The translations under genes and the position numbers were made by a program. 64,000 nt of DNA from an uncultured Syntrophobacteraceae bacterium. GTDB lineage: Bacteria > Desulfobacterota > Binatia > UBA9968. Of this stretch, positions 862-47,839 are shown piece by piece (the first letter of the stretch is position 1; the number at the start of each line of letters is the position of its first letter). The notes beneath the pieces are model-generated. The model was not told where the DNA came from. It did no database searches and worked only from the letters and a program-made list of their open reading frames with translations. Location of the stretch: positions 57,940-121,939 of the forward strand of contig CAYOJC010000001.1 in the NCBI GenBank assembly GCA_964404195.1, in the 5' to 3' direction.

Positions 862-3114
862 ATGGCGCATAAGGTTGTCGGGCGCTCGCTGCCCCGCGTC
901 GAGGGGGCGGCGAAGGTCAGCGGCGCGTTGAGTTACACGGCGGACATTCTTCGGCCCGGCTCTCTCTGGGGCAAAGTTCTGCGCAGCCCGCTGCCCCACG
1001 CGCGCATCCTTAATATAGATACCAGCCGGGCCATGAGCCTCCCCGGCGTGAAGGCGATCGTCACCGCCGCCGACATGAAAACGACGCTCGTCGGCGCGAC
1101 CTTGAGAGACATGCCGGTGATGGCGCGCGACCGCGTGCGCTTCGTCGGCGAGGAGATCGCCGCCGTCGCCGCCGTGGATGCCAACACGGCGGAAGAAGCG
1201 GTTGAATTGATCGACGTCGAATACGAAGATCTGCCGGCGGTTTTCGATCCGCTTGAGGCGATGAAGCCCGAGGCGCCCATCCTGCATCCGGATTACCCGA
1301 CTTATAAAGGACCGAAGACCATGGCGCTGGAACTCAAGAACGTCCAGACGCTCGTGCGCGGCCGGAAGGGCGAGATCGAAAAAGGCTTCGCCGAATCGGA
1401 TTTCATCTTCGAGAAAACTTATCGCACCCAGCTCGTGCACCAGGGCTACATCGAGCCTTACGCCTGCACGGTGGAAGTCGACGATCAGGGGCGCGTCGCC
1501 ATCTGGGTGGCGAACCAGGCGTTCTTCAAGCTCAGGCGCGTGCTGGCGGAATATTTGGAGCTTCCTCCGGAAGATATCACGATCTACCCAAGCAACATGG
1601 GCGGCTCGTTTGGCGCCAAAGATTTTCTGTTCCTGAATCCGGCGGCTTATTATCTCTCGAAAAAAACCGGCCGGCCCGTGCGCTTTGTGAAAAGCTACGG
1701 CGAAGAACTCGGAGCCACCACGCCGCGCCACTCCGCGGTGATCTCTCTCCGTGTCGGTGTAAAAAAGGACGGCCGCCTCTGGGCATGGGACGGAAAGACC
1801 TTCTACAACGGCGGCGCTTACGGCGCGTTCAAGCCCAACCCCAAAGGCTCGATGAGCGGCGCGTACATGGTCGCGGGCTCTTATAATATCCCCAACACGC
1901 GCCTCGAAGGGTATTGCGTTTACACCAATCAAGTCCCGTGCGGCTACTTCCGCGCGCCGGGGGAAGCCCAGACCCTGTTCGCGGTCGAAAGCCATATGGA
2001 CCTAATGGCCGAAGCGCTCGGCATGGATCCGATCGAGTTCCGCCGGCTGAACGCGCTGAAAGAAGGCGACACGCGCGCGACGGGCGAATCGCTGGAAGAT
2101 CCGCACTGCCTCGAAGTTCTCGATCGCGTGGCGAAAATTTCCGGATGGAAAAAGAAGCAAGCCAAAGCATCTGCCGAAAATAAATTAACCGGGCGCGGCG
2201 TGGCGCTCGGCGACCGCCACGTGGGCCACGGCGAGTCGAGCTTCGAATTGCTTCTCGAGCGCGGCGGAACGCTCCGGCTCTTGAGCGGCGTCGGTGATCA
2301 GGGGGTCGGCGCCTACACGATGCACCGCCAGGTCGCGGCCGAGCTGCTCGGAGTCAAGCCGGGCTTGATCGAGATCGAGGTCAGGGACACCTCCAACGCG
2401 CCATACGACCAGGGGATCAAGGGCGCCAGGGGGACGCACGTCGAGGGACAGGCGGTCGCGCGCGCGGCCGGCGCGTTGATCGACAATCTGCGTTCTCTCG
2501 CCGCGTCGCGATGGGGCGTGCCGGTCGAAAAGATTTCCTGGACCGATGGAGCCGCTCTCTTCAAAAACCACGGAAAAAGAAAAAAGCTGAGCTTGAAAGA
2601 ATTGGCGGGCCTTTCGGAAGCGCCGGTCAAGGGATTCGGCGAGTACACGGGACACAAGCCGCACGTCTATTCCTTTCAGGCGATCGTCGTCGACGCGGAG
2701 GTCGATCAGGAGACCGGCGCGGTCGAGTTGCAACACCTCTACTTCGTCTACGATGTCGGCACGATCATCAATCCGCTCAATCACCAGGGGCAGATCGAAG
2801 GCGGCATCGTCCAAGGCCTGGGCTACGCGCTGACCGAAGAGCTGAAAGTCGATGAAGGGCGCGTCACCACGGTGACGCTGGGCGATTACAAAATTCCCAA
2901 CATCGCCGACAATGTGCCGCTCACGACTTCGCTGGTTCAAGCGAAGGTCGGCCCCGGCCCGTTCGGCGCTAAGTCGGTGGCCGAGGCCGGAGTCAGCATC
3001 GTCGCGCCGGCGGTGGCGAACGCGGTCTACAACGCGACCGGCGTGCGGATCACTGAGCTGCCGGTCACCGCGGAAAAAATTATCGAGGGTCTCGCATGCC
3101 GTTCCAAAGTTTGA
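862..3114 (+). CDS. xanthine dehydrogenase/aldehyde oxidase-family molybdopterin-binding large subunit (copy 1)
   Basis: The protein is ~750 aa with an N-terminal a/b-hammerhead (RVEGAAKVSG..YTADI, LWGKVLRSPLPHARI) and the MoCo-domain motifs GGSFG, GYFRAPGE and GQGxxT. The ATG at 862 has a GGGAG RBS; the track start at 847 is a GTG. Confidence 0.85.
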   Translation: MAHKVVGRSLPRVEGAAKVSGALSYTADILRPGSLWGKVLRSPLPHARILNIDTSRAMSLPGVKAIVTAADMKTTLVGATLRDMPVMARDRVRFVGEEIAAVAAVDANTAEEAVELIDVEYEDLPAVFDPLEAMKPEAPILHPDYPTYKGPKTMALELKNVQTLVRGRKGEIEKGFAESDFIFEKTYRTQLVHQGYIEPYACTVEVDDQGRVAIWVANQAFFKLRRVLAEYLELPPEDITIYPSNMGGSFGAKDFLFLNPAAYYLSKKTGRPVRFVKSYGEELGATTPRHSAVISLRVGVKKDGRLWAWDGKTFYNGGAYGAFKPNPKGSMSGAYMVAGSYNIPNTRLEGYCVYTNQVPCGYFRAPGEAQTLFAVESHMDLMAEALGMDPIEFRRLNALKEGDTRATGESLEDPHCLEVLDRVAKISGWKKKQAKASAENKLTGRGVALGDRHVGHGESSFELLLERGGTLRLLSGVGDQGVGAYTMHRQVAAELLGVKPGLIEIEVRDTSNAPYDQGIKGARGTHVEGQAVARAAGALIDNLRSLAASRWGVPVEKISWTDGAALFKNHGKRKKLSLKELAGLSEAPVKGFGEYTGHKPHVYSFQAIVVDAEVDQETGAVELQHLYFVYDVGTIINPLNHQGQIEGGIVQGLGYALTEELKVDEGRVTTVTLGDYKIPNIADNVPLTTSLVQAKVGPGPFGAKSVAEAGVSIVAPAVANAVYNATGVRITELPVTAEKIIEGLACRSKV

Positions 3115-3176
3115 GAGAGTTCGTGCGCGAGTTTCACTTGTCACGACAATGGGACGCAACCCAGGGGGCTTTATGA
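3096..3176 (+). pseudogene. remnant of a UbiD 5' end (MPFQSLREFVREFHL…*) overlapping the XDH copy-1 stop
   Basis: gcatgccgttccaaagtttgagagagt (3092-3118) is 22/27 identical to the true UbiD start at 5749-5775 (gcatgccgttccaaagcctaagagatt; MPFQSLRDYL). Confidence 0.4.
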
Positions 3177-4732
3177 ACTGCTTGCGCATTGCGGCGTCTT
3201 TGTTGAGCGTATTTCTTGCCGTGGGTTTGTCCGAGGGAGCGGAGTCTCCGAGATACGGGGGGCGTTTGGTTTTTGGCCTGGCTAGAGACATCACCGGCCT
3301 GAATCCTTTCGTTCGCACCCGCTCAACCAACAAGTACGTACGGCAGATTGCCTACGAAGCGCTTTTCGACTACGACACAAAGGCTCAGCTCGTTCCGGCG
3401 CTTGCCGACTCCTGGACTGTTTCTCCCGATAGCAAGGTTTACACGATCAGGCTGCGGCGGGGGGTAAAATTTCACAACGGCGAGGAGCTGACCGCCGAAG
3501 ATGTGAAATGGAGCGCCGAATACGCCAAGGACCCCAAGAACGCGGCAACCGGAATCACCTTCTTGGAAAGAGTGCAGGCAGTGAGCGTCAAGGACAAGTA
3601 CACGGTGGAGTTCCTCCTAAAAGAGCCCCAGGCAATCTTTCTTAACCTGTTGGCATCCATGGAGGCCTCCTTCCCCGTTCTTCCCAAGGGGTCGGTGCCG
3701 GCTGCGCAGAGCAATTTGCCCAGTCCCCCTCCCGGGACCGGACCTTTTGAATTCAAAGAATACAAGCCGGCAAGAGAACTAGTCTTTGTGCGCAACAAAA
3801 ACTACTGGCAGAAAGGCCTTCCCTATCTCGACGAGCTGGTGCTCAAACCGGTGGAGGATGAGCAGGTTCGTTTTGCTTCGCTGCGCGCCGGGGACCTGGA
3901 TATGATCGAGCGAACCGCCTACGTATTCGTGAAGAAAATATTAAACAGAGAATACCCGGAGATCGGGGTTACAGAAGCCAAATATGCCGGCTTTCGGCGC
4001 CTGATATTCAACGTCGTGAATCCGCCCTTCAACGATCTCAAGCTGCGTCAGGCCGTGCTTTATGCTCTGGACAAAAAAGGCTACCTCGAAGGGGCCTTCT
4101 GGGGTCTTGGGGAGCCGGCGAACCAGGCGATTCCGACGGAGAGCCCCTGGTACGTCAAGCTGCCGGAGGCCAAGCGGGATTTGGCCAAGGTCAAGGCTCT
4201 TTTAAAGGAATCGAAAGCCGGCCCCGACTTTGAAGTGGAAATCCTGGCCCGGAGAGGGGAAGAGCCCGAGACCCAGATCCTTCGAGAGCAACTGACGACC
4301 GCCGGGATCAAAACCAGGATTGCGCTGCTGGAGAGCGCGGCGCGTGAGGCGCGGACCCGCGCAGGTGATTTTATGATAGTCCTGAGCGGGATGGATGTGC
4401 CCAACGATCCGGGGGACGATTATTCGGTGGAGTATGGCTGTAATCCCGAGGAAGTGTCGGCCAAACGACGAGGCCAGAACCAGGCCGGTTATTGCAATAA
4501 AGAATTCGACCGGCTGATGGCGGAGGCGTCGAAGATCCAGGATACGAAAAAGCGTTATGGGCTTTACGCCAATGCACTTGGGATTCTCAATCAAGAAATT
4601 CCGGCTATCTCCATGGCGTTCGTGCCGCGCTATTTCAGCTATCGACAGAAGGTGCGGGGCTTCAGGACCGACGGAGGCGATCGCTTCAACACGATCACTA
4701 CGGGACTTTCACGGGTTTGGATCGAACCTTAG
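3173..4732 (+). CDS. ABC transporter substrate-binding protein, family 5 (DppA/OppA-like), copy 1
   Basis: Signal peptide MNCLRIAASLLSVFLAVGLSEG, then RYGGRLVFGL…GLNPF…KFHNGEELTAEDV…PPGTGPF. An alternative ATG lies at 3149. It is paralogous to 20310, 25467(-) and 28635. Confidence 0.85.
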   Translation: MNCLRIAASLLSVFLAVGLSEGAESPRYGGRLVFGLARDITGLNPFVRTRSTNKYVRQIAYEALFDYDTKAQLVPALADSWTVSPDSKVYTIRLRRGVKFHNGEELTAEDVKWSAEYAKDPKNAATGITFLERVQAVSVKDKYTVEFLLKEPQAIFLNLLASMEASFPVLPKGSVPAAQSNLPSPPPGTGPFEFKEYKPARELVFVRNKNYWQKGLPYLDELVLKPVEDEQVRFASLRAGDLDMIERTAYVFVKKILNREYPEIGVTEAKYAGFRRLIFNVVNPPFNDLKLRQAVLYALDKKGYLEGAFWGLGEPANQAIPTESPWYVKLPEAKRDLAKVKALLKESKAGPDFEVEILARRGEEPETQILREQLTTAGIKTRIALLESAAREARTRAGDFMIVLSGMDVPNDPGDDYSVEYGCNPEEVSAKRRGQNQAGYCNKEFDRLMAEASKIQDTKKRYGLYANALGILNQEIPAISMAFVPRYFSYRQKVRGFRTDGGDRFNTITTGLSRVWIEP

Positions 4733-4759
4733 GTGGTCACTCGATAAAGGAGGATCAAG

Positions 4760-5479
4760 ATGCCAAAGCCGCCTGACGAATTCGTCGAAGAGCTTTTGCG
4801 CGGGAGGCTACCCCGTCGCGAGGAACGGCCGACTCGAGCGCTGATCGTTCAGGGAAAGCTCAGCAAAGAACAAGTGAAGCTATGGGTCAAGCAGCTTCAC
4901 TATTATCGCGTCAACGTGCCGCGCAAGGAGCTCTATATCCTGGCCAATTGCCCGATCAAAGAGATCCGGATGGAGCGATTGAAAAAGTATCTTGAAGAGG
5001 AGGACGATCGCGTGATGGGCGGGAAAGCCGGACCTCATGCCGAGCTGTGGGCCCAGTTGGGCGAAGGCCTGGGGATAAGCCGCGCGGAGATGGAAGACTT
5101 CGACGCCATGTGCCCGGAATACCGCCTCCTCGTCGACTCATGGGTCAACTACGCGCGCGATCACACTTGGCTGGGAGGCTCGGCCATGAGCTTCGATGAA
5201 GACGGCGGCACGGGGACCTCGGGCGAAGGAATGAACATGGCGCGGGCCTTGTCCAAATTCTACGGCGTTCCCGATTCGGGGTTGGCACATTTCACGCTCC
5301 ATTCCGAGCTTGACATCGAGCACGGCGCGTCGACCCACGACTTGATCCGAAAATACTCCCTTACGGACGAGCAACAGGAGGGCGTTCGCAACGCGGTCCG
5401 CTTCAAAAGAGCCTTCCATACGATGGAGGACCAGTGCATGCGGATCGCTTGCCGAATCGACCCGCAATTATATGCTTAG
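4760..5479 (+). CDS. PqqC-like (cofactor-independent oxygenase, haem-oxygenase-like fold) protein
   Basis: LSKEQVKLWVKQLHYYRVNVPRKELYILANCP and HAELWAQLGEGLGISRAEM align with the PqqC motifs TREQIQGWVANRFYYQ..IPLKDAAI.ANCP and IEAWLRLGEAVGLSRDDL. An AAAGGAGG RBS is present. No pqqA/B/D/E genes are nearby. Confidence 0.7.
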   Translation: MPKPPDEFVEELLRGRLPRREERPTRALIVQGKLSKEQVKLWVKQLHYYRVNVPRKELYILANCPIKEIRMERLKKYLEEEDDRVMGGKAGPHAELWAQLGEGLGISRAEMEDFDAMCPEYRLLVDSWVNYARDHTWLGGSAMSFDEDGGTGTSGEGMNMARALSKFYGVPDSGLAHFTLHSELDIEHGASTHDLIRKYSLTDEQQEGVRNAVRFKRAFHTMEDQCMRIACRIDPQLYA

Positions 5480-5697
5480 CCTGGATTATTCATCGACCGA
5501 GGAAAGATCGTGACACACTGTAGATGAGAAAAGCGTTCTTTGAGTCTTGGCGCGAGGACTTAAAAACTTCGTAACCTTCGTGCTCTTCGTGGTGATAAAC
5601 TTTTTGACCACGAAGGACACGAAGCACACGAAGGAAGAGGCGCAAAGAAAGAAGCCGTACCTCACGGAGAGGATGTATAACGGTGAATAATCCGGGC
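5479..5697. mobile_element. MITE-like element: 14-bp terminal inverted repeats (gcctggattattca / tgaataatccgggc) flanking a CACGAAGG hairpin
   Basis: The TIRs are 13/14 complementary. The core ccttcgtgctcttcgtggtg…accacgaaggacacgaagcacacgaagg is palindromic. The copy at 46630 starts with a similar TIR (ccggaatgattca). Confidence 0.45.
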
Positions 5698-5750: not shown

Positions 5751-7184
5751 ATGCCGTTCCAAAGCCTAAGAGATTACCTCAAGAAGGTCGAAGAGCACGG
5801 CGATCTTCTTAAGATCGACGGCGCGTCCCGCGAGGAGGAGATCGGCGCGCTGGCGGAAATCGTCGCGAGCACGGCCAAGCACCCGATGCTGCTCTTTGAC
5901 AACATCAAAGGATACCCCGCGGGATATCGCGTTTCGGCCAGCACGATGGGCGGCGTGCGCCGGATGGCTCTCGGCCTCGGCTTGGACCCGTCGCTCGCCA
6001 ATGTCGAGCTGGTAAAGGCATGGAAAGAGAAGCTCAAGACGTTCAAGCGGATCGAGCCGCGCGAAGTCGCCGACGGTCCGGTGCGGGAAAATGTTTTCTC
6101 CGGCGAAAAAATTGACTTGCTCAAATTCCCCGCGCCGAAGTGGCACGAACGCGACGGCGGCTACTACATCGGCACCGGCTGCTGCGTGATCACGCGCGAC
6201 CCCGACGATGGCTGGGTCAACATGGGCGTCTATCGCGTCGTGGTCCACGATAAGAAAACTCTCGGGATTTTTATCAACCACATCCAGCACGGCCGGCTCA
6301 TCGTCGAGAAGTACTGGTCGCAAGGAAAAAGTTGCCCGGTGATTATCTCTTTCGGACAAGACCCCGCGCTTTTTCTCGCCGCCGCGCAGCGCGAGCCGTG
6401 GGGCGTGGGCGAGCTCGACGTCGCGGGATGGCTTCGCGGCGAGCCGGTGGAAATTCTGAAAGGCGAGAGGACGGGTCTGCCGATTCCCGCGCACGCGGAG
6501 ATCGTCGTCGAAGGAGAGATCCCTCCGATCGAGAAAGAAGCGCGGCCCGAAGGGCCGTTCGGCGAGCGCACGGGTTACTACGCGACCGGGACGAGAAACG
6601 AGCCGGTCGTCCGCGTGTCGTCGCTGATGCACCGCAACGATCCGATCATCCAGGGTGATCCGCCGCTGAAGCCGGTGCCCGGCATGGACCACTTCGGCAT
6701 CCCGCTGCCCGCGGCGGGTGTGTGGTCGGCGTTGGAATCCGCCGGCATTCAAGACATCCGCGGGGTCTGGCTGCACGGCCCGTTCGCGACGGTGATCTCG
6801 CTCAAGCAGCGCTACGAAGGCCACGCGCGCCAGGCGGCGGCGATCGCGCTCGGCGCGCGCGCCACGGTGCACCTCGGAAGATTCGTCATTCTTGTCGACG
6901 ATGATATTGACCCGTCGGATCTCAGCGACGTCTTCTGGGCGGTCACGACGCGCTGCGATCCGGCGGAGCAAACGGAAGTCTTGAAAGGATTTCCGACGAG
7001 CGGCATCAATCCGCGCGTCGCGCCGGCGGACCGTGAAGAGGGACACTTTGTCTCTTCCAAGATGATCATCGACGCGTGCCGGCCGTACCGTTGGATCAAG
7101 GATTTTCCGGCGACGAACGTCATGAGCCCGGAGCTGAAAACGAAAGTAGCGGAGAAGTGGAAGCGATTGCTGGAGCGGCAGTGA
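5751..7184 (+). CDS. UbiD-family decarboxylase (copy 2)
   Basis: 477 aa. The N-terminus MPFQSLRDYL…LLFDNIKGYPAGYR matches the canonical UbiD PALLFENPKGY region, and the full-length architecture fits the family. Confidence 0.85.
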   Translation: MPFQSLRDYLKKVEEHGDLLKIDGASREEEIGALAEIVASTAKHPMLLFDNIKGYPAGYRVSASTMGGVRRMALGLGLDPSLANVELVKAWKEKLKTFKRIEPREVADGPVRENVFSGEKIDLLKFPAPKWHERDGGYYIGTGCCVITRDPDDGWVNMGVYRVVVHDKKTLGIFINHIQHGRLIVEKYWSQGKSCPVIISFGQDPALFLAAAQREPWGVGELDVAGWLRGEPVEILKGERTGLPIPAHAEIVVEGEIPPIEKEARPEGPFGERTGYYATGTRNEPVVRVSSLMHRNDPIIQGDPPLKPVPGMDHFGIPLPAAGVWSALESAGIQDIRGVWLHGPFATVISLKQRYEGHARQAAAIALGARATVHLGRFVILVDDDIDPSDLSDVFWAVTTRCDPAEQTEVLKGFPTSGINPRVAPADREEGHFVSSKMIIDACRPYRWIKDFPATNVMSPELKTKVAEKWKRLLERQ

Positions 7185-7278
7185 GTTTTCCATGCCGGCG
7201 ACCGTGCCGCGCGAGGCATCGCGTCCGGCTTCAAGGACGAATTATACAAACAAGCCCCGTGAGAAGAATGCAAGGCCA

Positions 7279-9531
7279 ATGGATTTTCTGACGATCGGCC
7301 AGCCGGTCCCGCGCGTCGACGGCCCCGCCAAGGTGAGCGGCGCGTGCGTTTACACGGCCGACGTTCCCGGCGCGGGAACGCTGTGGGGAAAATTTTATCG
7401 CAGCCCGCTGCCGCACGCGCGCATCCTGAACGTCGATACGGGAAAAGCCAAGAAAGTTCCCGGCGTCAAAGCCGTGATCTCCGCCGGCGACGTGTCGCCG
7501 CGGCGCGAGGGCTACACGCTGCAGGACAAGCCGATCTTCGCGCGGAAAAAAGTTTTATATTGCGGGGAAAAGGTCGCGGGAGTCGCGGCCGTCGATAAGG
7601 ACGCGGCGGAAGAGGCCGTCGCGTTGATCGAAGTCGAGTACGAAGAGCTGCCGGCGGTGTTCGATCCGCTCGAGGCGATGAAACCGGAAGCGCCCCTGCT
7701 TCACCCCGACTATGCCTCCTACCTTGGGCCGCCGAGCATGGCGCCGGATCTGAAAAACGTCCAGAGCGTGATGCGCGCCGCCAAAGGCGACACCGCCAGA
7801 GGATTCGCGGAATCGGACGAGATTTTTGAAAACTCTTTTCGCACGCAGATGGTCCACCAGGGCTTCATCGAGCCGCGCGCGTGCCGGGTCGAGATCGACC
7901 GCGACGGACGGATCCAGGTCTGGTTTTGCCATCAATCGAGCTTCAAGGTCCGCCGCTGGATGGCGACGCACCTCGGAATTGCCGAGGAGAAAATCGTCGT
8001 CCATCCGGTCGCGCTCGGCGGCTCGTTCGGCGGCAAAGAAGGCTATGAGGAGGCGCTCTGCACCTATTACCTGGCCGCGGCCGCCGGCAAGCCGGTGAAA
8101 GTGGTGGATAGCTACGCCGAGGAGCTGCTCGACGGCGAGCCGCGCCACGCGGCGGTAATCCGGCTTGGCACCGGCGTGAAGCGGGACGGCCGGCTGTGGG
8201 CGTGGGAGGGAAAGATATTTTACAACGGCGGCGCCTACGCCGCGCGAAAGCCCAGCCCGAAGGCCAACATGAGCGGCACCTTCATGCTGGCGGGCTCGTA
8301 CAACATCCTGCATACGCTCATGGAAGGCTACGCGGTTTACACCAATCAAATACCGTGCGGCTACTTTCGCGCGCCGGGAGAGCCGCAGACGCTCTTCGCC
8401 GTCGAATCACACGTCGACATGATCGCCGAAACCTTGGGCATCGATCCGCTCGAGTTTCGCTTGAAGAACGTGTTGCGCGCGGGAGATACGAGGGCGACGG
8501 GGGAGCCGCTCGCCGATCCGCGCGGCGCGGAAGCGCTCAGCGAGCTGGGAAAAATTTCGGCCTGGAAAAAAACTTCTCTAAAACCGACGCGAGGCCGGAA
8601 GCTCCGCGGGCGCGGGCTCGCCCTCGGCGACCGCCACGTGGGCCACGGCGAGTCCAGCGCCGAGATTTATCTCGAGCGCGACGGCGCGGTGCGCCTCGTC
8701 ACTTCCGTGAGAGATCAGGGCGTCGGCGCTTACACGATGCATCGCCAGGTCGCGGCGGAAACGTTGGGCATCGAGCCGGAGCGCGTTCGGGTCGAGATCA
8801 AAGGGACGGCCGACGGTCCTTACGACGAGGGCGTCCGGGGCGCCCGCGGCGCGCACGTCGAAGGCCGTGCGGTGTTGCGCGCGGCCGAAAACTTAATCGC
8901 ATGTCTCCGAAAACAGGCCGCGGCGTACTGGAGAGTCGACGCCGGCAAGGTCGAGTGGCAAGCGGGCAAGGCGTGGTTGGCGAACGGCCGAAAATCCAAA
9001 AACCTCGGACTTAACGATCTGGCCCGCATGATCGAAGCGCCGCTCAAAGGCTACGGCCATTACAAGGCCGAGAAAAAACCTTCGGTCTATTCCTTTCAGG
9101 CGATCGCCGCAGACGTCGAAGTCGACGCCGAAACCGGCGCAGCGCGCGTCGCGAAGCTCTATTTTACTTACGACGTGACCAAAGTCATCAATCCGGTCAT
9201 TCACCAGGGACAGATCGACGGCGCGATCGTCCAGGGATTGGGCTATTCGTTGATGGAGGAAATGGCCGTGGACGAAGGGCGGGTGCTCACGCTGAGCCTC
9301 GGCGATTACAAGATACCCAACATCAAAGACGTTCCGCCCCTCGTCACTTCTCTGGTGCAAGCCAAAAAAGGGCCCGGACCTTTCGGCGTGAAGGCCGTGG
9401 CGGAAGCGGGCATCAGCATCGTCGCTCCCGCGATCGCCAACGCCGTTTACAACGCGACCGGCGTGAGAATCACGGAGCTGCCGGTCACGGCGGAAAAAAT
9501 TCTCGCCGGTCTGGCGCGTCTTTCTAAATGA
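7279..9531 (+). CDS. xanthine dehydrogenase-family molybdopterin-binding large subunit (copy 2)
   Basis: It is paralogous to 862..3114 (PRVDGPAKVSGACVYTADV…GYFRAPGEPQTLFAVESH). The ATG at 7279 is in frame; the track ORF was extended upstream. Confidence 0.85.
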   Translation: MDFLTIGQPVPRVDGPAKVSGACVYTADVPGAGTLWGKFYRSPLPHARILNVDTGKAKKVPGVKAVISAGDVSPRREGYTLQDKPIFARKKVLYCGEKVAGVAAVDKDAAEEAVALIEVEYEELPAVFDPLEAMKPEAPLLHPDYASYLGPPSMAPDLKNVQSVMRAAKGDTARGFAESDEIFENSFRTQMVHQGFIEPRACRVEIDRDGRIQVWFCHQSSFKVRRWMATHLGIAEEKIVVHPVALGGSFGGKEGYEEALCTYYLAAAAGKPVKVVDSYAEELLDGEPRHAAVIRLGTGVKRDGRLWAWEGKIFYNGGAYAARKPSPKANMSGTFMLAGSYNILHTLMEGYAVYTNQIPCGYFRAPGEPQTLFAVESHVDMIAETLGIDPLEFRLKNVLRAGDTRATGEPLADPRGAEALSELGKISAWKKTSLKPTRGRKLRGRGLALGDRHVGHGESSAEIYLERDGAVRLVTSVRDQGVGAYTMHRQVAAETLGIEPERVRVEIKGTADGPYDEGVRGARGAHVEGRAVLRAAENLIACLRKQAAAYWRVDAGKVEWQAGKAWLANGRKSKNLGLNDLARMIEAPLKGYGHYKAEKKPSVYSFQAIAADVEVDAETGAARVAKLYFTYDVTKVINPVIHQGQIDGAIVQGLGYSLMEEMAVDEGRVLTLSLGDYKIPNIKDVPPLVTSLVQAKKGPGPFGVKAVAEAGISIVAPAIANAVYNATGVRITELPVTAEKILAGLARLSK

Positions 9532-10589
9532 ACATGGCGGTCCTTAAACCCGAAGAGCATGAGCGGATGGTGATGGAGTCGGTCCGCTTCGCCAAGGAAG
9601 AAGCGAAGCGGCGGCAACAGGCACCGGTGCAGATCAAGGCCGAGGAGATCCGCGCGCAGTTCGAAACGAATTCCCATCTCTATCTCGTCGATCCGCGGTT
9701 GGGCTTCAATCACCGGACGTTTCGCTTCTGGATCAACCGCATCCCCGCGGGCGAGGAAGAGGGGATGGGCTGGAAGACGCTCGGCCACCGCCACACGGTC
9801 GAGGCGGTGCTCCACGTGCTGCAAGGAACCGGCCACAGCATCGTCGACGGCGCGCGCTACGACTGGGCGCCGGGCGATTTTATCAGCGTGCCGATGTTTT
9901 CCTGGCACCGCCACGTGAACACCGGCGACGAAGATTTTATTTATCTGGCGGCGACCACCGGCCCGCTGTCGTTGTCTCTCGGATTGGCGGTCTACGAAGA
10001 CGAGCGGTATCCGGACTATTGGGTCTTCGGCCACAAGAGCGAGAGCGCGATGAAGTCGCTGATCCCCGGCGCGGACGACAGCACGCGCGTGCGCACTGCC
10101 GAGGAGGCGTCGCGGGAGCCGCTGAGCCCGACGGACGCCTATTACCGGCAGCACCTGTTGTTTTCCGGCGGCGAGGAGAAGCGCCGCCGCCAAAGCCGGG
10201 TGCTGGTGAAAGGGGCTCAAGTCGATTTCGAAAAGACCGCCATGGGACGCGTCCGTTATGTGATCGATCCGCGGACGGGCTTTCTCATGCGCGTCCTGGG
10301 GACGCTGTTGGCCGAGATCTCTCCGGGAAAACGCTCCGGCGCGCACCGGCATATGTACGAAGAGGTGAATTATGTCCTTTCAGGGCGCGGCTACAGCCTG
10401 ATCGAAGATCGGAGATACGACTGGGCGGCAGGCGACGTTCTTTGTATTCCGGTCTTCGGTTGGCATCAGCACTTCAACACCGGCAAGGAGCCGGCGCGGC
10501 TGTTGGTCCATCACAACCGGCCGCTGATGGAAAATCTGGGCTTCATGCACGTCGAACAAGGCGAAGAAGCAGAGGAGGAATCCTTATGA
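9528..10589 (+). CDS. bicupin dioxygenase, gentisate 1,2-dioxygenase-like
   Basis: Two cupin modules each carry His motifs (GHRHTVEAVLHVLQGTG…SWHRHVN and GAHRHMYEEVNYVLSGRG…GWHQHFN). The start ATG overlaps the XDH stop (ATGA). Confidence 0.7.
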   Translation: MNMAVLKPEEHERMVMESVRFAKEEAKRRQQAPVQIKAEEIRAQFETNSHLYLVDPRLGFNHRTFRFWINRIPAGEEEGMGWKTLGHRHTVEAVLHVLQGTGHSIVDGARYDWAPGDFISVPMFSWHRHVNTGDEDFIYLAATTGPLSLSLGLAVYEDERYPDYWVFGHKSESAMKSLIPGADDSTRVRTAEEASREPLSPTDAYYRQHLLFSGGEEKRRRQSRVLVKGAQVDFEKTAMGRVRYVIDPRTGFLMRVLGTLLAEISPGKRSGAHRHMYEEVNYVLSGRGYSLIEDRRYDWAAGDVLCIPVFGWHQHFNTGKEPARLLVHHNRPLMENLGFMHVEQGEEAEEESL

Positions 10590-11595: not shown

Positions 11596-13038
11596 ATGAA
11601 CACGGATCTGCGAGACTGGATCGTTGCGGTACAAGCCACCGGTGAGATCAAGACGCTCAGCGGCGCAGACTGGAACAGAGAGATCGGCACGCTGGTTGAG
11701 CTCAACGCCAAGGCGCGTGGGCCGGCCCTGCTCTTCGACGAGATCAGGGGCTACCCGGCGGGCTTCAGGCTGCTGGCCGGGGCGATGTCGAGCGCCAGAA
11801 GACTCGCCCTGACGCTTGGGCTTCCGCCCGATCTCGATGGGCTCGAACTCATCCGTTGCATGAAAGACAGCATGCGCGGCTGGAACGACCGCCTGGGTGA
11901 TTTTCCGCCGGTAGAGGTTCAAAGCGGCGTCGTCTTTGAAAACGTGGATGCCGAGGAAAAGACCAATCTGTTAAAGTTTCCATCCCCGCTTTGGCACGAA
12001 GAGGACGGCGGGCGCTATATCGGCACAGGCTCGGTTGCCATCATGCGAGACCCGGAAAGCGGCTGGATCAATCTAGGCACCTACAGGATCATGGTTCACG
12101 ATGAAAAGAGCGCCGGCATCTTCATGGCACCCGGCCACCATGGCGGAATCATCATGAAGAAATACTGGAAAGCGGGCAAACCCTGCCCGATTGCCGTCTC
12201 CGCCGGCCATCACCCGCTGATTTTTTTTGCCGGATCTTCTTCGCTTCCCGCGGAGACTTCGGAATACAACTACGTCGGTTCCATTCTGAAGGAGTCGGTG
12301 CCGGTCGTGATGGGACCCGTCACCGGGCTTCCGATTCCGGCCTACAGCGAAGTCGCATTCGAAGGCCACCTTTTTCCCGACGAAATGAAAACCGAGGGAA
12401 TATTCGGCGAATGGCCCGGCTACTACGTGAGCGAGGCCAAGCCGGAGCCGGTCATCCGGGTCAAGGCCGTGTATCACCGAAACGATCCGATTCTGCTCGG
12501 CGCCTGGCCCGGAAAACCACCCCACGACAGCACTTACCGAAACTCGATCATAAAGTCTGCAAGCCTTTGGGAGCTTCTCGAACGAGCGCGCATTCATGGC
12601 GTCACCGGCGTTTATCGCCCGGAGGCCGGGAGCGCAAATCTTTTGACGATCGTCAGGATCAAGCAGCTCTACGACGGCCACGCCCGCCAGGTGGGAACCG
12701 TAGCTTCGCAGCTTCTCCATCCGTCACATTCCACCCGCTATGTCATCGTCGTCGATGACGGCCTCGACATCACCAATCTTGAGGAGGTGATGTGGGCGGT
12801 CTGCACGCGCAGCGACCCGGCGCGCTCGATCGCCATCATTGACCAGACCCACGCCAACGCTCTCGACCCGATGGTTCGCTCACGCTATGACAAAGCGGCC
12901 GGCAACACGGCTTCCTGCGCGATCATCGACGCCTGCTGGCCCTACCGCGCGCTTGCCAAAGTCCCCAAGGTCGCAGAGTCGAGCGAGGAGTTTAAAAAAC
13001 AGGTCAAAGCCAAGTGGAGAGGAAAACTGTCTCTGTAA
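11596..13038 (+). CDS. UbiD-family decarboxylase (copy 3)
   Basis: 480 aa. GPALLFDEIRGYPAGFR and a UbiD-like C-terminus (VIVVDDGLDITNLEEVMWAV). Confidence 0.85.
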   Translation: MNTDLRDWIVAVQATGEIKTLSGADWNREIGTLVELNAKARGPALLFDEIRGYPAGFRLLAGAMSSARRLALTLGLPPDLDGLELIRCMKDSMRGWNDRLGDFPPVEVQSGVVFENVDAEEKTNLLKFPSPLWHEEDGGRYIGTGSVAIMRDPESGWINLGTYRIMVHDEKSAGIFMAPGHHGGIIMKKYWKAGKPCPIAVSAGHHPLIFFAGSSSLPAETSEYNYVGSILKESVPVVMGPVTGLPIPAYSEVAFEGHLFPDEMKTEGIFGEWPGYYVSEAKPEPVIRVKAVYHRNDPILLGAWPGKPPHDSTYRNSIIKSASLWELLERARIHGVTGVYRPEAGSANLLTIVRIKQLYDGHARQVGTVASQLLHPSHSTRYVIVVDDGLDITNLEEVMWAVCTRSDPARSIAIIDQTHANALDPMVRSRYDKAAGNTASCAIIDACWPYRALAKVPKVAESSEEFKKQVKAKWRGKLSL

Positions 13039-13052
13039 GCCGTTCTTTTTTA

Positions 13053-14246
13053 TCAGGTATGTTCTTTCTGGAGGAACCAATCGGTGGGGATCTCGTGGCC
13101 CAGCTCCAGGCGACGCGCGCCGGCGAGAATCCGCGCGCCGGTCGCCGCATGCTGGATGCCGAGGCCGATGTTGTTACAGTGAAAGGTGATCTCATCGTCC
13201 TTTCTCCTACCCTTGATTTTTCCCGTCAGCAGCTCGCCGAGCTCGTGCATCGAGGCCCAGTCGAGCTGCCGCGATTTTTTGTTGATGTTGCTCCCGACCG
13301 TATCCATCTTCTTCCCCATGACGAAGTCGCGCACCAGATCGCTCCCGCCGGAGAAGGGGCGCGCGTTGACGACGATGAGATCGCTGATCTTAAAGCTCGC
13401 CGCGTCCGCCTCGACGATGTTGATGCTGCCGAAATGCGCGCCTTCCTCGATCCAGCGCGCGCGAAAGACCGGCGTCAGAGAGGTCGTGGCGCTCAACACA
13501 ATTTCCGAACCGGGGCAAACGTCTTGCGGCTTATCGACTGGAACGATCTCGATTCCCGTGGCCCGCTCCATGCTGGCGGCGAAGGCTTTGCGGTGGCCGG
13601 CGTTGGGGCTGAACACTTTGACGCGCTTAAGCTTTCTCACCAGAGCGGCCGCCATCACCTGGCCCTCGGCCTGGAAACCAGTGCCAAAAAGGCCCAGCGT
13701 CTGAGCCTCCTTTCGCGCCAGGTGCTTGATCCCGACGGCGGAAGTCGCCGCCACGCGGTTTCTCTGCAGCGGTCCGAGCGGCAGAATGGCGAGCAGCTCG
13801 CCGCTTACGATATCGAAGAGAAGCATCATGCCCGTGTAGCGCCAGCCCGATCCAAGTGGCAGCTTTACGCTCCGCTTGACGCCGTTGACGACGGGGTTGG
13901 TGTCCGTCGTCGAGTCGATTTTCAGCGCCATGATGCCGCACTTCGGATAGCCGCCCGGAATGGTCTTGAGCCGATAGTTCAGCTCCTCGGTTCGCTTGGC
14001 GGCGCGAACCCACAGAGGGGACTGATGCGGATCGGCGTCGACCGGGAGATCGCGCAGCAGTTTCTTTGCCTTTCGGCTGACCTCAGCGGAAGCGCCGTAT
14101 TTGAGAAGCGGAATGCCGGTCTCGGTGCGCGGCGCGTTGATCGCCGCTCCTTTGCCCAACTCCGTGAAGGCCTCTTCCATCGCCTCGATGTAGCCCTTGA
14201 GATCCAGGGCCCGCAGGACCTCTTCCGTATTCAAGACCAGCGTCAT
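13053..14246 (-). CDS. ornithine cyclodeaminase/mu-crystallin family protein
   Basis: Rossmann motif LGLFGTGFQAEGQV and OCD-family architecture (~397 aa). It is the only minus-strand gene in the first 25 kb. The overlapping + ORF 13014..14390 is an R-rich artefact. Confidence 0.75.
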   Translation of the reverse strand: MTLVLNTEEVLRALDLKGYIEAMEEAFTELGKGAAINAPRTETGIPLLKYGASAEVSRKAKKLLRDLPVDADPHQSPLWVRAAKRTEELNYRLKTIPGGYPKCGIMALKIDSTTDTNPVVNGVKRSVKLPLGSGWRYTGMMLLFDIVSGELLAILPLGPLQRNRVAATSAVGIKHLARKEAQTLGLFGTGFQAEGQVMAAALVRKLKRVKVFSPNAGHRKAFAASMERATGIEIVPVDKPQDVCPGSEIVLSATTSLTPVFRARWIEEGAHFGSINIVEADAASFKISDLIVVNARPFSGGSDLVRDFVMGKKMDTVGSNINKKSRQLDWASMHELGELLTGKIKGRRKDDEITFHCNNIGLGIQHAATGARILAGARRLELGHEIPTDWFLQKEHT

Positions 14247-14352
14247 TTTGCCCCCGCCGGACGATTTTCCCGGTTTAAGATTTTTTCGTTTTCGCCGACC
14301 GGCTTTTTTATAGGCCAGCCTGGTCGGAAAGACAACCGATCTATTGACCGAT

Positions 14353-14428
14353 GCCGGCGCGGCTGTTGGTCCATCACAACCGGCCGCTGATGGAAAATCT
14401 GGGATTCATGCACGTCGAACAAGGCGAA
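14353..14428 (+). repeat. 76-bp remnant of the bicupin 3' end (75/76 identical to 10491-10566)
   Basis: Direct comparison of gccggcgcggctgttggtccatcacaaccggccgctgatggaaaatctggg[c/a]ttcatgcacgtcgaacaaggcgaa. It lies immediately upstream of NMT1-like SBP copy 2, in the same position as the intact bicupin relative to copy 1. Confidence 0.8.
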
Positions 14429-18896: not shown

Positions 18897-19093
18897 ACTC
18901 TGAGAGTGTGTGAGAAAATTCGTTCATGGTTCGACAAGCTCACCACGAGCGGAATAGCGTAGATGGTAATTCAAGCACTTATCCGTTTGTCCTGAGCTTG
19001 TTGAAGGGCGATCGGCAATTTTTTCACACATTCTGAGAGGATCTCCTATGGACCGGGAAACGATCGGTCGCATTATCGTGAGGCCATTCTTTT

Positions 19094-20194
19094 ATGAAAT
19101 ATGCTAGCGACCAAAGAGTAGACACCTATCGCGACTGGCAGGCGGCGCAAAAAATCCCGATCAACAGGGGATTTTTTATCGGAGACTTGAAAAAAGTGGA
19201 AGTGGCTCCCTGGGATCTCAAGGGCGGGCTGGGGGCATTCATCAACCTCGAGGGCACCGGCGAGGCCAACGATGCCTACGTATGCGAGATCCCGCCCGGA
19301 AACCAATTAAGACCGCAAAAACACCTCTTCGAGGAGATGGTCTTCATCGTCGACGGACACGGCGCGACCTCCGTCTGGCAGGAAAACGGCAAGAAGCACA
19401 TCTTCGAGTGGCATCCCGGCAGTTTATTTGCGATTCCGCTCAATGCCAGGTACCAGCACTTCAACGGACAGGGAAACGCCCCGGCGCGGTATTTTGCCGT
19501 GACCAACGCTCCTTTTATGATGAATCTGTTCCACAACCTGGATTTCATCTTCGATAACGTGTTCACTTTTACGGACCGCTTTTCGACCGAGGAGGACGAC
19601 TATTTCAGCGGCGAAGGGCAGTTGTGGGGAGACAAGCTGTCGGTCAACCTCGTCCCGGATACGCGAAAAATCCGGCTCTATGAAAAAAAAGCGCGCGGCG
19701 CCGGAGGGAATAGGCAAGTCTTATTCGACCTCGCCGGCAATACCATGATGGCTCACATCTCGGAATTCGGCGTCGGCTCCTACAAGAAGGCGCACCGCCA
19801 CGGTCCGGGGGCTCACGTGACCATTTTAAGCGGCCAGGGCTACTCTCTTTTATGGCCGGAAGGAAAAGAGCCGGCGCGCGTGGACTGGAAACCCGGCAGC
19901 GTCGTGGTACCGCCGAACCAGTGGTTTCACCAGCATTTCAACACCAGCGCCGAGCCGGTCCGCTATCTGGCGCTCCGCTGGAACAGTTGGCGTTATCGTT
20001 TTCCCATATTCAAAAACGAAAACACACCGACGGACAAAAGTGTCAAAGAGGGAGGCACGCAGATCGAGTACGAAGATGAAGACCCGAAGATTCACGAATT
20101 GTTCGAAGCCGCTCTCGTAAAGGCGGGGGCCCCATGCAGGATGGGCGCCGCGGTGCCCTGGTGCACGCAGAAGGAAGCTGCGCGGGCGGTCTGA
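19094..20194 (+). CDS. bicupin-fold protein (paralog family A, copy 1)
   Basis: 366 aa. The C-terminal cupin has KAHRHGPGAHVTILSGQGYS…PPNQWFHQHFN. Close paralogs lie at 21899 and 27155(-). Confidence 0.65.
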   Translation: MKYASDQRVDTYRDWQAAQKIPINRGFFIGDLKKVEVAPWDLKGGLGAFINLEGTGEANDAYVCEIPPGNQLRPQKHLFEEMVFIVDGHGATSVWQENGKKHIFEWHPGSLFAIPLNARYQHFNGQGNAPARYFAVTNAPFMMNLFHNLDFIFDNVFTFTDRFSTEEDDYFSGEGQLWGDKLSVNLVPDTRKIRLYEKKARGAGGNRQVLFDLAGNTMMAHISEFGVGSYKKAHRHGPGAHVTILSGQGYSLLWPEGKEPARVDWKPGSVVVPPNQWFHQHFNTSAEPVRYLALRWNSWRYRFPIFKNENTPTDKSVKEGGTQIEYEDEDPKIHELFEAALVKAGAPCRMGAAVPWCTQKEAARAV

Positions 20195-20199
20195 TCACC

Positions 20200-20250
20200 C
20201 ACCGTTTGCCCTTCGACAAGCTCAGGGCGAACGGTGGCGAGTTTTTTTCC
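20200..20250 (+). terminator. REP hairpin doubling as an intrinsic terminator after the bicupin copy-1 gene
   Basis: The 13-bp stem caccgtttgccct/agggcgaacggtg (20200-20236) is followed by gcgagttttttt. Confidence 0.45.
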
Positions 20251-20278
20251 GTTCGTGCTGAGCGTGTCGAAGCACGAA
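20200..20278. repeat. REP-like composite element (hairpin A 'FDKLRANG-type' plus hairpin B ttcgtgct…agcacgaa)
   Basis: Two palindromes. The same pair, inverted, lies at 27044-27150 downstream of the bicupin copy-3 gene. Degenerate remnants lie at 18900-19020. Confidence 0.55.
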
Positions 20279-20309
20279 GATGTGACACGTTCGTTTCAGG
20301 AGATTTTTT

Positions 20310-21860: not shown

Positions 21861-21898
21861 CGCGCAGAGCAGAGCGCGGGCAGAATGGGGGATAAGAT

Positions 21899-27011: not shown

Positions 27012-27043
27012 AAAAAATCTCCTGAAAGGAACTTGTCGGCATC

Positions 27044-27150
27044 TTCGTGCTTCGACAGGCTCAGCACAAACGGAAAAATGAACCTCGCCACCGTTCGCCC
27101 TGAGCCCTTCGGCTTCGCTCGGGACAGGCCCGTCGAAGGGTGAACGGTGG
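27044..27150. repeat. REP-like composite element, an inverted copy of 20200-20278
   Basis: Hairpin B is ttcgtgct…agcacaaa (27044-70). Hairpin A is gccaccgttcgccct…agggtgaacggtgg (27087-150). On the minus strand it is followed by a T-run (catttttcc). Confidence 0.5.
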
Positions 27151-27154: not shown

Positions 27155-28258
27155 TCAGACCGCGCGAGCGGCTTCCTTCTGCGTGCACCAGGGAATGGCG
27201 TGCCCCATGCGGCAGCGCGCCGACGCCTTGGCCAAAGCTTCCTCGAACACGGCATGAATTCTCCGATCTTCGTCCTCGTATTCGATCTGCGCGCCGCCCT
27301 GCTTGACGCTTTTGTCGGTCGGCGCGTCCTCGTGATTGAACATCGAGAAACGGTAGCGCCAGGTGTTCCAGCGAAGCGCCAGGTAGCGCGCCGGGTCGGC
27401 GCTGGAGTTGAAGTGCTGGTGGAACCATTGGTTGGGCGGCACGACGACGCTGCCCGGCTTCCAGTCGACGCGCATCCGCTCTTTGCCTTCCGGCCAGAGC
27501 AGCGAGTAGCCCTGGCCGGTGAGGATGATGACGTGCGCGCCGGGGCCGTGGCGATGCGCTTTCTTGTAGGTGCCGACGCTGAACTCCGATATGTGCGACA
27601 TCATGATGTTGCCGGCGAGGTCGAACATGACGTGGCGGTTGCCGCCTGCCCCGCGTGCCGGCTTGTCGTAAAGCGGTACCGTGTAGACGTCGGGAACGAA
27701 GTTGACGGAGAGCTTGTCGCCCCAGAGCTGACCGACGCCGCTGAAGTAATCGTTTTCTTCCTCCGGATTGAAGCGGTCGAGAAAAGCGTAATCCGCGTTG
27801 AAGACGAAATCGACGTTATGAAACAAGCTCAGCATGAAAGGCGCGTTGGTCACGGCGAAGTAACGCACCGGCGCGTTGCCCTGGCCGTTGAAGTGTTGGT
27901 ACGAGGCGTTCAAAGGGATGGCAAAGAGGCTGCCGGGATGCCATTCGAAGGTGTGTTTCCTCCCGTCTTTTTGCCAGATGGTGGTGGCCCCGTGGCCTTC
28001 CACGATGAAAACCATCTCTTCATAGAGGTGCCTCTGCGGCTTGAGCGACTTCCCCGGCGGAATGACGCACACGTAGCCGTCGTTGGTCCCTCCCGTGCCG
28101 TCGAGATTAATGAACGCTCCCAGGCCGCCCTTGAGATCCCAGGGCGCGACTTCGACTTTGCGCAGGTCCTCGATGAAAAATCCCCGGTGGATGGGAATTT
28201 TCTGCGCGATCTGCCAGGTCTCGTACGTATCGATCATCTGATCGTCGGTGTATTTCAT
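27155..28258 (-). CDS. bicupin-fold protein (paralog family A, copy 3)
   Basis: MKYTDDQMIDTYETWQIAQKIPIHRGFF… is ~80% identical to copy 1. GGAGG RBS 7 nt upstream of the ATG at 28258. Confidence 0.65.
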   Translation of the reverse strand: MKYTDDQMIDTYETWQIAQKIPIHRGFFIEDLRKVEVAPWDLKGGLGAFINLDGTGGTNDGYVCVIPPGKSLKPQRHLYEEMVFIVEGHGATTIWQKDGRKHTFEWHPGSLFAIPLNASYQHFNGQGNAPVRYFAVTNAPFMLSLFHNVDFVFNADYAFLDRFNPEEENDYFSGVGQLWGDKLSVNFVPDVYTVPLYDKPARGAGGNRHVMFDLAGNIMMSHISEFSVGTYKKAHRHGPGAHVIILTGQGYSLLWPEGKERMRVDWKPGSVVVPPNQWFHQHFNSSADPARYLALRWNTWRYRFSMFNHEDAPTDKSVKQGGAQIEYEDEDRRIHAVFEEALAKASARCRMGHAIPWCTQKEAARAV

Positions 28259-28373
28259 AAACTTCCGCCTCCTCGCTAATCCAAATCGACAAATAGTTTC
28301 GGATCGATCCTTTGTGGAAGAGATCTCTTCCACTCATGAGTTCTTGAATGAAATCATCCGGCGGCTTAGGCAT
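28259..28373 (-). pseudogene. 5' remnant of a second PqqC-like gene (MPKPPDDFIQELMSGR…)
   Basis: The first ~16 codons match the 4760 PqqC-like start (MPKPPDEFVEELLRGR) at both protein and DNA level. The frame then diverges and runs into the bicupin gene. Confidence 0.45.
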
Positions 28374-30254: not shown

Positions 30255-31202
30255 GTGATTCTCTACATTCTCAGACGACTCCTTCAACTGATCCCGGTTC
30301 TTTTTATCGCCTCGTTCATTGTTTTTTTTATTATTCATCTGATCCCGGGCGACCCGGTCGAGATCATGCTCGGCGAGGAGCGCTACGACCGGGCGCAGTA
30401 CGAGATTCTGCGTAAAAAAATGAATCTCGACCAGCCGATATACGTCCAGTACCTGACTTGGCTCGGACGCGTCGCGCAAGGAGACCTGGGACAATCGCTG
30501 CGCACGCAGCGGCCCGTCCTCGACACCGTCGTCGAGCGCTTTCCCGCCACGCTTTATCTCGCCCTCGCCTCTCTCATCATAGGCATCGTGATCGCGATCC
30601 CCGCCGGAACACTGGCGGCCGTGAAGCAAAACACTGTCTACGATTACGGCGCCATGGGCTTTGCGCTGTTCGGCATCGCCGTGCCTAATTTTTTTTTCGC
30701 GCTCTTGTTGATCCTGGGCTTCGGCCTTTACCTGGGCTGGTTTCCGACGCTCGGCTACATCGACCCCTCGGCCAACTTCCCGCGCTTTCTCTGGCATCTC
30801 ACGCTGCCGGCCCTGGTGTTGGGAACCGATCTGGCTTCAACGGTGACCCGCTACGTGCGCGCGGAAATGCTCGAGCAGCTCCGGCTCGACTACGTGCGCA
30901 CGGCCAGAGCCAAGGGCGTGCCGCGCCGGCTGGTCATCTATAAACACACGCTGAAGAATTCTTTGATCTCGGCCACGACCGTCATCGGTCTTCAGGTGGG
31001 CCGGCTGCTCGGTGGCTCTACGATCATTGAGACGGTCTTTGCCTGGCCCGGCGTCGCGCGCCTGGTCCTGGAGGCGGTTTACTCGCGCGACTACCCGCTC
31101 CTGCAGGGCGCGGTCTTGTTTCTGGCGTTCACGTACGTGGGCGTGAATCTGGTCGTCGACGTGCTATACAAATGGCTGGACCCGCGCATCTCGCTTAAAT
31201 GA
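30255..31202 (+). CDS. ABC transporter permease (DppB/OppB-like)
   Basis: MILYILRRLLQLIPVLF (GTG start) and multi-TM composition. The stop/start overlaps the next gene. Confidence 0.85.
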   Translation: MILYILRRLLQLIPVLFIASFIVFFIIHLIPGDPVEIMLGEERYDRAQYEILRKKMNLDQPIYVQYLTWLGRVAQGDLGQSLRTQRPVLDTVVERFPATLYLALASLIIGIVIAIPAGTLAAVKQNTVYDYGAMGFALFGIAVPNFFFALLLILGFGLYLGWFPTLGYIDPSANFPRFLWHLTLPALVLGTDLASTVTRYVRAEMLEQLRLDYVRTARAKGVPRRLVIYKHTLKNSLISATTVIGLQVGRLLGGSTIIETVFAWPGVARLVLEAVYSRDYPLLQGAVLFLAFTYVGVNLVVDVLYKWLDPRISLK

Positions 31203-37387: not shown

Positions 37388-37402
37388 AGATCAAGGCGCC
37401 TT

Positions 37403-46629: not shown

Positions 46630-46760
46630 CCGGAATGATTCAAACTTCGTGTGCTTCGTGCTCTTCGTGGTGAGAGGATTTTAACCACGAAGGATCGGCC
46701 TTAAAAACTGTGGCTGATCCGTCCTCTGGCGGACACGAAGGTCTCGAAGGAAGACAACAT
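46630..46760. repeat. REP/MITE-like CACGAAGG element (third copy)
   Basis: ccggaatgattcaaacttcgtgtgcttcgtgctcttcgtggtgag…aaccacgaagg, directly after the VOC stop. Confidence 0.45.
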
Positions 46761-47776: not shown

Positions 47777-47839
47777 GGTAGGGGCGGTTCGCGAACCGCC
47801 CCTACGCCTGCCATGGGCCTGTCGTCCGCGTTTGTTAAT

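Follow-up and report, generated by a model that had tools for sequence, protein, structure and literature searches.

A haem-oxygenase-like protein with a candidate dimetal site in putative aromatic-acid catabolic modules of an uncultured Binatia bacterium

We examined a 64,000-nt stretch of DNA (hereafter the window; positions 57,940 to 121,939 of contig CAYOJC010000001.1, assembly GCA_964404195.1) from an uncultured bacterium of the Binatia, and in particular its gene HOL1, which encodes a haem-oxygenase-like (HOL) protein related to PqqC and CADD (Table 1). HOL1 is intact, and 27 nt separate its start, which carries a ribosome-binding site, from the stop of the gene upstream, which encodes a family-5 solute-binding protein (SBP_bac_5, SBP5). 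Elsewhere in the window, the flank of one bicupin gene (bicupin 3) holds the remnant of a second HOL gene (HOL2), and a short spacer in front of another (bicupin 4) marks the place of a third.

Table 1. Features of the window that bear on the HOL genes (window coordinates)
Feature	Position	Strand	Remarks
SBP_bac_5 solute-binding protein gene	2912..4732	+	directly upstream of HOL1; ORF limits, true start probably later
HOL1 ribosome-binding site	4747..4753	+	AAGGAGG, 6 nt 5' of the HOL1 ATG; read from the sequence
HOL1, intact haem-oxygenase-like (PqqC/CADD-related) gene	4760..5479	+	ATG start, stop codon included; 239 aa
Six candidate metal-ligand codons of HOL1	4997..5323	+	from alignment with bona fide CADD-family proteins
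Candidate ligand E80	4997-4999	+
Candidate ligand H93	5036-5038	+
Candidate ligand E147	5198-5200	+
Candidate ligand H181	5300-5302	+
Candidate ligand D185	5312-5314	+
Candidate ligand H188	5321-5323	+
UbiD-family decarboxylase gene (UbiD_1)	5751..7184	+	directly downstream of HOL1; closest solved relative PhdA (7PDA)
Molybdenum-hydroxylase large subunit, module 1	7192-9531	+	within 7192..10589
Bicupin copy 1	9528-10589	+	last gene of module 1
Spacer between SBP5_2 and bicupin 4	21861..21898	+	38 nt; site of the missing third HOL, no scar
Bicupin copy 3, intact	27155..28258	-	ATG 17 nt past the stop of the HOL2 remnant
HOL2 3' remnant	28276..28309	-	last 11 codons (RIDPKLFVDLD) and TAG stop; frame differs from that of the 5' piece
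HOL2 5' remnant	28310..28373	-	64 nt; codons 1-21 and first base of codon 22; reads MPKPPDDFIQELMSGRDLFHKG

Among solved structures in the PDB, the best sequence match of HOL1 is PqqC (E = 1.2e-15 with the single sequence and 2.5e-22 with a family profile), followed by the CT610/CADD para-aminobenzoate (pABA) synthases (E = 3e-5; profile 7e-6). Two Pfam models pass their cutoffs, namely PF14518 "iron-containing redox enzyme" over residues 42-213 (48.2 bits; gathering score 28.9) and PF03070 TENA/THI-4/PQQC over residues 30-139 only (40 bits), and these matches bear out an earlier interpretation of the letters alone (the sequence-only reading), which had described the product of 4760-5479 as PqqC-like. 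Against the curated NCBIfam models, HOL1 stays below the cutoff both for the PqqC equivalog (TIGR02111; 76.1 bits vs 240) and for CADD (TIGR04305; 55.2 bits vs 200), and by these scores it belongs to neither family. Its close homologues, 64-90% identical, come chiefly from Candidatus Binatia metagenome-assembled genomes; Methylomirabilota, Acidoferrales/Acidiferrales, Deltaproteobacteria and Verrucomicrobiia each appear as the label of a single record. On clustering at 50%, this clade collapses into one representative (478 bits), and the next full-length relatives score just 100-150 bits; PF14518 passes its cutoff for the clade, whereas the PqqC-like matches (P0075-P0086) carry PF03070 alone. 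The HOL1 clade lies between PqqC and CADD and is a tight, isolated, highly conserved and narrowly distributed family. Many of its members are automatically annotated as PQQ (pyrroloquinoline quinone) synthase or "coenzyme PQQ biosynthesis protein C", a label that is very probably wrong. Our search of the literature found no paper on the clade.

An AlphaFold2 model of HOL1, built from 25 sequences (pLDDT 91, pTM 0.88), has the seven-helix haem-oxygenase-like fold and is closest to the PqqC structures (PDB 1OTV/1OTW). In a Foldseek search of the PDB, PqqC (1otw) ranked first (TM-score 0.83, root-mean-square deviation 2.5), ahead of CADD (TM-score ~0.71) and then TenA-like proteins, UndA, BesC and HrmI. 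TenA/thiaminase or haem oxygenase, which the sequence-only reading had named as the top structural matches that would contradict it, did not come first, and membership of TenA/thiaminase II is not indicated, TenA structures ranking below both PqqC and CADD. The fold by itself cannot tell cofactor-less PqqC from the dimetal enzymes.

We aligned the proteins that pass the CADD cutoff (P0183, P0224, P0232 and P0145) with the HOL1 clade, intermediate relatives and PqqC-like sequences. The columns conserved in CADD are occupied in HOL1 by six residues, E80, H93, E147, H181, D185 and H188 ([ED]EE...H.xLW, YE and HxxxDxxH); the same columns hold E81, H88, E142, H174, D178 and H181 of CtCADD, which we take to be its metal ligands. 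All six are invariant in the full-length members of the HOL clade (62/62), as are H177, K56, K76, R133 and K216. The C-terminal half of HOL1 alone aligns best with the pABA synthase 9PJ4, with H-x3-D-x2-H in register, and among distant relatives EE...H and HxxxDxxH are kept exactly in P0088, P0091, P0107 and P0113, and in P0095 except for a shifted acidic residue. At the level of the alignment, HOL1 thus carries the 3-His/3-carboxylate motif by which the superfamily of haem-oxygenase-like dimetal oxidases/oxygenases (HDOs) is recognised, and the order of its candidate ligands agrees with that of the 3H/3C motif spread over three core helices in a review of HDOs (PMC13108848). In the folded protein the six residues would be expected to converge in space.

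The main competing explanation is a cofactor-less oxidase of the PqqC type, as the sequence-only reading had proposed, in which protein side chains and O2 alone would act on a quinol- or aminophenol-type aromatic intermediate. PqqC is indeed the closest solved relative in both sequence and fold, K56, R70, R133, K216, N63-C64 and E147 are invariant between the HOL1 clade and the PqqC-like proteins, and the substrate of PqqC, a carboxylated hydroquinoline, chemically resembles compounds that UbiD decarboxylases and molybdenum hydroxylases clustered together might process. The score of 76 bits is far from the equivalog cutoff of 240, however, and the centre of the site differs. PqqC H84, which together with R179 we take to be an active-site residue (K. 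pneumoniae numbering), aligns with E80, and H181 pairs with R179 in the MAFFT alignment or with Q182 in that made by HMMER. Y175 is replaced by H177, and the 154-157 region by a Gly-rich loop (DGGTGTSGEG) that leaves no counterpart to H154 or R157; H154, R157 and Y175 are active-site residues of PqqC in the same numbering (PMC2294125). The PqqC-like sequences in turn retain at most three of the six ligands (E147, the Asp and the last His) and have DHDG...GG where the HOL1 clade has EEED...GPH, H93 being located in a "GPHA" insertion. The PqqC active-site His, Tyr and Arg residues that the sequence-only reading had named as a check are thus replaced in HOL1, and the positions that differ are the ones that complete the 3-His/3-carboxylate set and are invariant in the clade. 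On this evidence we consider a cofactor-less mechanism unlikely. That K56, R70, R133 and K216 are common to HOL1 and the PqqC-like proteins would fit an anionic, carboxylated substrate.

The shared fold, the annotation of one clade member by one source as a "TenA family transcriptional regulator", and the identical ligand set of CADD could alternatively point to a TenA-type thiaminase II, a haem oxygenase or a self-sacrificing CADD-type pABA synthase (CT610, 1RCW, 8VA9). The structural ranking given above speaks against the first of these, and a role as pABA synthase, which in CADD goes with the sacrificial Tyr27 and Lys152, was rejected because the tyrosine column holds an arginine (R26) in HOL1; the folate-related context of CADD is likewise not seen around HOL1. 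We regard this group of functions as very improbable.

The surroundings of HOL1 are those of a catabolic island. Open reading frames (ORFs) of at least 90 aa were picked by a simple greedy caller and annotated with Pfam, the scan leaving out about ten of them (31199-32110, 33075-34049, 49709-50248 and all from 55480 on). In positions 1-34 kb it identified five UbiD decarboxylases, of which one is truncated at the start of the window, the large subunits of three molybdenum hydroxylases, four bicupins, binding proteins of the SBP_bac_5 and NMT1-like types (four each) and an ABC transporter. Extreme paralogy runs across the whole of window 1-34000. No FeS or FAD small-subunit domain for the molybdenum hydroxylases appeared among the Pfam matches of the scanned ORFs. 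Genes of the radical-SAM PqqE, PqqB and PqqD types were likewise absent from the scanned ORFs, about ten ORFs being unscanned and pqqA too small for the method; within these limits, the sequence-only reading was correct in calling HOL1 an orphan PqqC-like gene with catabolic surroundings, a setting in which it differs from PqqC. For the UbiD proteins adjoining HOL genes the closest match is PhdA (7PDA; E = 4e-128 and 2e-94), which decarboxylates phenazine-1-carboxylate in M. fortuitum, and bicupin 1 weakly resembles 5-aminosalicylate and gentisate 1,2-dioxygenases. One ORF of the cluster, the 458-aa frame at 13014-14390 (+), matches no Pfam or NCBIfam model and has a low third-position GC (0.60); the real gene there may be a different one.

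The association with these genes recurs in other genomes. We probed 30 related loci for which sequence was available with the proteins of the window, and flanks were readable in 24 loci, that of HOL1 itself included. A UbiD or bicupin gene immediately adjoins HOL in 23 of the 24, L004 being the sole exception: a bicupin lies directly 3' in 12, a UbiD directly 3' in 7 and a UbiD directly 5' in 3, and L007 too has a UbiD directly 5', with a bicupin ~0.5 kb downstream. The gene 5' of HOL is usually an SBP_bac_5, and the HOL-flanking genes of the other loci that match the probe set encode an SBP, a UbiD, a bicupin, a molybdenum hydroxylase or a luciferase-like monooxygenase. L007, on a complete Binatia chromosome, shows the arrangement in compact form (SBP5-permease-permease-UbiD-HOL-bicupin), with phage and insertion sequence (IS) genes on its flanks. 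HOL types track their partners, the HOL1 type occurring with UbiD_1, a second type with bicupin 3 (L001 and L013) and a third with bicupin 4. Another Binatia chromosome (L006) carries a second, distant HOL-like gene (19180-19749, minus strand; 27% identical) ~9 kb from its main HOL.

The second HOL type survives in the window as two fused ends upstream of bicupin 3. The sequence-only reading had noticed a stump of ~16 codons here, and this is real: 28373->28326 (minus strand) reads MPKPPDDFIQELMSGR, with 11/16 residues identical to HOL1 (tblastn E = 8e-4 within the window) and ~34/48 nt identical as counted from the alignment. Its extent had been under-described, for the remnant comprises a 64-nt 5' end and also the final 11 codons and stop. 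Nor does it stem from a second copy of the same gene, as had been supposed, since MPKPPDDFIQELMSGRDLFHKG is far closer to a paralog (P0061; 19/22 aa identical, E = 3.8e-11) than to HOL1 (11/22). The relative L013, which is 92% identical to window 28273-25010 across bicupin 3, SBP5_3 and the end of molybdenum hydroxylase 3, has an intact 243-aa HOL gene at the syntenic position, and the 5' piece matches that gene with 85% nucleotide identity over 28381-28310, including 8 nt 5' of the ATG. Relative to L013, the window lacks nt 107-737, that is, 631 bp and no multiple of three, so that the earlier suggestion that the body of a second PqqC-like gene had been replaced or deleted holds in its second form. 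The junction lies between 28310 and 28309, where CACAAAGG is directly followed by ATCGATCC, with CAAAG/CAAG microhomology.

Could the N-terminal similarity at 28373 be a common leader or a chance match instead of a gene remnant? Such a view could draw on the 16 codons that were all that was noted at first and on the modest E-value of 8e-4 against the window's own copy. Yet no other ORF of the window begins in this way, the match to P0061 is strong, and the C-terminus of the family with its stop comes straight after the 5' piece; moreover, L013, 92% identical over the flanking 3.3 kb, has an intact gene exactly there, and L001 shows the same order of HOL and bicupin 3. The comparison with L013 refutes a common leader as the source of the stump, and we rejected this explanation, the probability of which is negligible. 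Barring an assembly artefact, it is near certain that the HOL2 remnant is a pseudogene made by a microhomology-mediated internal deletion: like other such pseudogenes, 28276-28373 keeps both gene ends, has a broken frame and corresponds to an intact syntenic ortholog in a close relative. The case is nothing unusual, and the downstream bicupin retains its ribosome-binding site and start codon. Bicupin 3 itself, which follows an intact HOL in both L001 and L013, is 94% identical to its L013 ortholog and 83% identical (aa) over the 202 aa present on L001. The retained pieces of HOL2 are 85% and 77% identical to L013, as against 92-94% for the flanking genes, and this lower identity fits decay after inactivation. 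By these alignments, HOL2 is a distinct paralog, ~70% identical to HOL1, that pairs with bicupin 3 in relatives.

Within the remnant lies a perfect 20-nt palindrome (28314-28333), one of two found in the window, where 0.115 would be expected. An operator or recombination site was considered for it and rejected; because 19 of its 20 nt are already present, as coding sequence (SGRELFH), in the intact L013 gene, the palindrome was inherited and neither made by the deletion nor its cause. A scan for promoters and terminators around the remnant found nothing, and its predicted RNA fold is not unusual (z = -0.71).

The third HOL type has left no such trace. Around position 21870, between SBP5_2 and bicupin 4, locus L012 matches the window with 92% identity on one flank and 89.5% on the other, and nt 694-1478 of L012 (785 bp, with a complete HOL at 734-1471) have no counterpart in the window. 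The order SBP5_2-HOL-bicupin 4 is also found in L008, L019, L020 and L023, and HOL-bicupin 4 in L003, L025 and L028; because this arrangement recurs across other loci, the HOL-less state of the window is derived. One of three HOL genes is thus kept in this genome, and all bicupin partners are intact. An ancestor of this genome would have carried at least three HOL paralogs, each with its own partner gene, of which HOL1 alone survived here: HOL2 would have been lost by the 631-bp frameshifting deletion between CAAAG and CAAG, leaving a 98-nt scar (28276-28373), and the HOL between SBP5_2 and bicupin 4 would have been removed whole.

Taking the active site and the gene neighbourhoods together, we propose that HOL1 is an O2-activating, HDO-type dimetal oxidase/oxygenase embedded in modules for the catabolism of aromatic acids, a reading to which we assign a probability of roughly 0.6. 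The protein would combine a PqqC-type scaffold with an active-site centre bearing the complete 3-His/3-carboxylate set of dimetal enzymes; two Fe (or Fe/Mn) ions would be bound through E80, H93, E147, H181, D185 and H188, and the enzyme would activate O2 and oxidise or hydroxylate a carboxylated (hetero)aromatic intermediate. In the order suggested by the modules, a substrate would be taken up by an ABC system with a family-5 binding protein, decarboxylated by a PhdA-like UbiD, acted on by HOL and passed to the bicupin, a probable ring-cleaving dioxygenase, HOL providing an O2-dependent hydroxylation or oxidation before ring cleavage. HOL is proposed for the oxygenase step because no gene annotated in the cluster at 1-34 kb encodes a flavin or Rieske oxygenase.

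Several points weigh against this proposal. By sequence, HOL1 resembles PqqC, a cofactor-less enzyme, more than it does any proven HDO. Its identity to UndA, BesC, SznF, HrmI, RohS, AetD and the mononuclear FlcD is only 10-16%. E80 and H93 are 13 residues apart, as against 7 between the corresponding ligands of CADD, with a family-specific Gly-rich insertion (6 residues relative to CADD) between them, and for this reason the site could differ in geometry from that of CADD or be mononuclear. The functions listed for HDOs lie mostly in the biosynthesis of natural products or cofactors (PMC13108848), so that a catabolic role, in clusters for uptake, decarboxylation and cupin-type cleavage, has little precedent; we found no paper that ties an HDO to catabolic clusters of UbiD and cupin genes. 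Finally, two HOL copies have been lost beside intact bicupin partners, which suggests that the modules can do without HOL or share one.

This last point is also what would be expected if HOL were an accessory or maturation protein, one copy of which could serve several modules, for example in the oxidative maturation of a cofactor (such as the prenylated FMN, prFMN, of the neighbouring UbiDs, by analogy with PqqC and PQQ) or as a metal or redox partner of the bicupins. The presence of a UbiD or bicupin beside HOL in nearly all readable loci would suit such a role, and so would the variation in the type of partner. The HOL clade is restricted to few lineages, however, while UbiD is universal; the paralogs track partner type, more as substrate-specific enzymes would; and no UbiX was seen in the window. 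An accessory function therefore seems improbable to us. Returning to the dimetal oxidase/oxygenase, we tentatively, and with considerable doubt, extend the proposal to the clade as a whole: it might be an HDO that was drawn into catabolism, where, as a dimetal hydroxylase/oxidase of one subunit, it would act on carboxylated (hetero)aromatics between prFMN-dependent UbiD and ring-cleaving bicupin, and at the same time a living intermediate between metal-dependent CADD-type enzymes and cofactor-less PqqC, with the scaffold and carboxylate-binding residues of PqqC and an intact dimetal site. More speculatively still, the cluster might degrade PQQ-like compounds or phenazine/quinoline carboxylates, with HOL recognising them through a PqqC-derived pocket.

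Other features of the window were recorded alongside. A REP/MITE-like element (of the repetitive extragenic palindrome or miniature inverted-repeat type) made of CACGAAG/CTTCGTG repeats occurs in three intergenic gaps (682-723, 5563-5595 and 46642-46682), one of them the 270-nt gap between HOL1 and UbiD_1, where the syntenic gap of L002 measures ~15 nt. Short segments in the gaps between bicupin and SBP5 genes (20244-20282 vs 27040-27078; also 18983-19015 and 20202-20234) share 95% identity, as against 71-78% for the flanking paralogous genes, and resemble dispersed hairpin repeats of a second class. The other perfect 20-nt palindrome (47782-47801; GGGCGGTTCGCGAACCGCCC), just 3' of gene 46808-47776, may be a terminator stem. 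Beyond 34 kb there are an IS91 transposase and a recombinase, along with miscellaneous genes and nonribosomal peptide synthetase (NRPS) genes; the IS91-family transposase (Y2_Tnp) and a tyrosine recombinase (36212-38239, minus strand) stand just past the end of the catabolic island. Upstream of NRPS genes whose modules are repeated, a ferritin-like/COQ7-like ORF is found together with a gene for a PLP-dependent enzyme (47840-49721 on the minus strand and 50375 onward on the plus strand), and the region may be a small natural-product cluster; a weak tblastn match of HOL at 49131-49415 (minus strand) falls in the ferritin-like/COQ7-like ORF, and was set aside as no relative.

If the proposed function is true, a conserved HDO-type protein in the modules for uptake, decarboxylation and ring cleavage of aromatic acids in Binatia and similar soil lineages would carry HDO chemistry into catabolism. 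As the HOL clade stands between PqqC and CADD, it is relevant to the question of how a metal site was lost in PqqC or retained in its relatives. The "PQQ synthase" labels would lead to an overstatement of the capacity for PQQ synthesis inferred from metagenomes. The repeated loss of HOL beside intact bicupins, for its part, provides a natural test of the need for HOL in each module.
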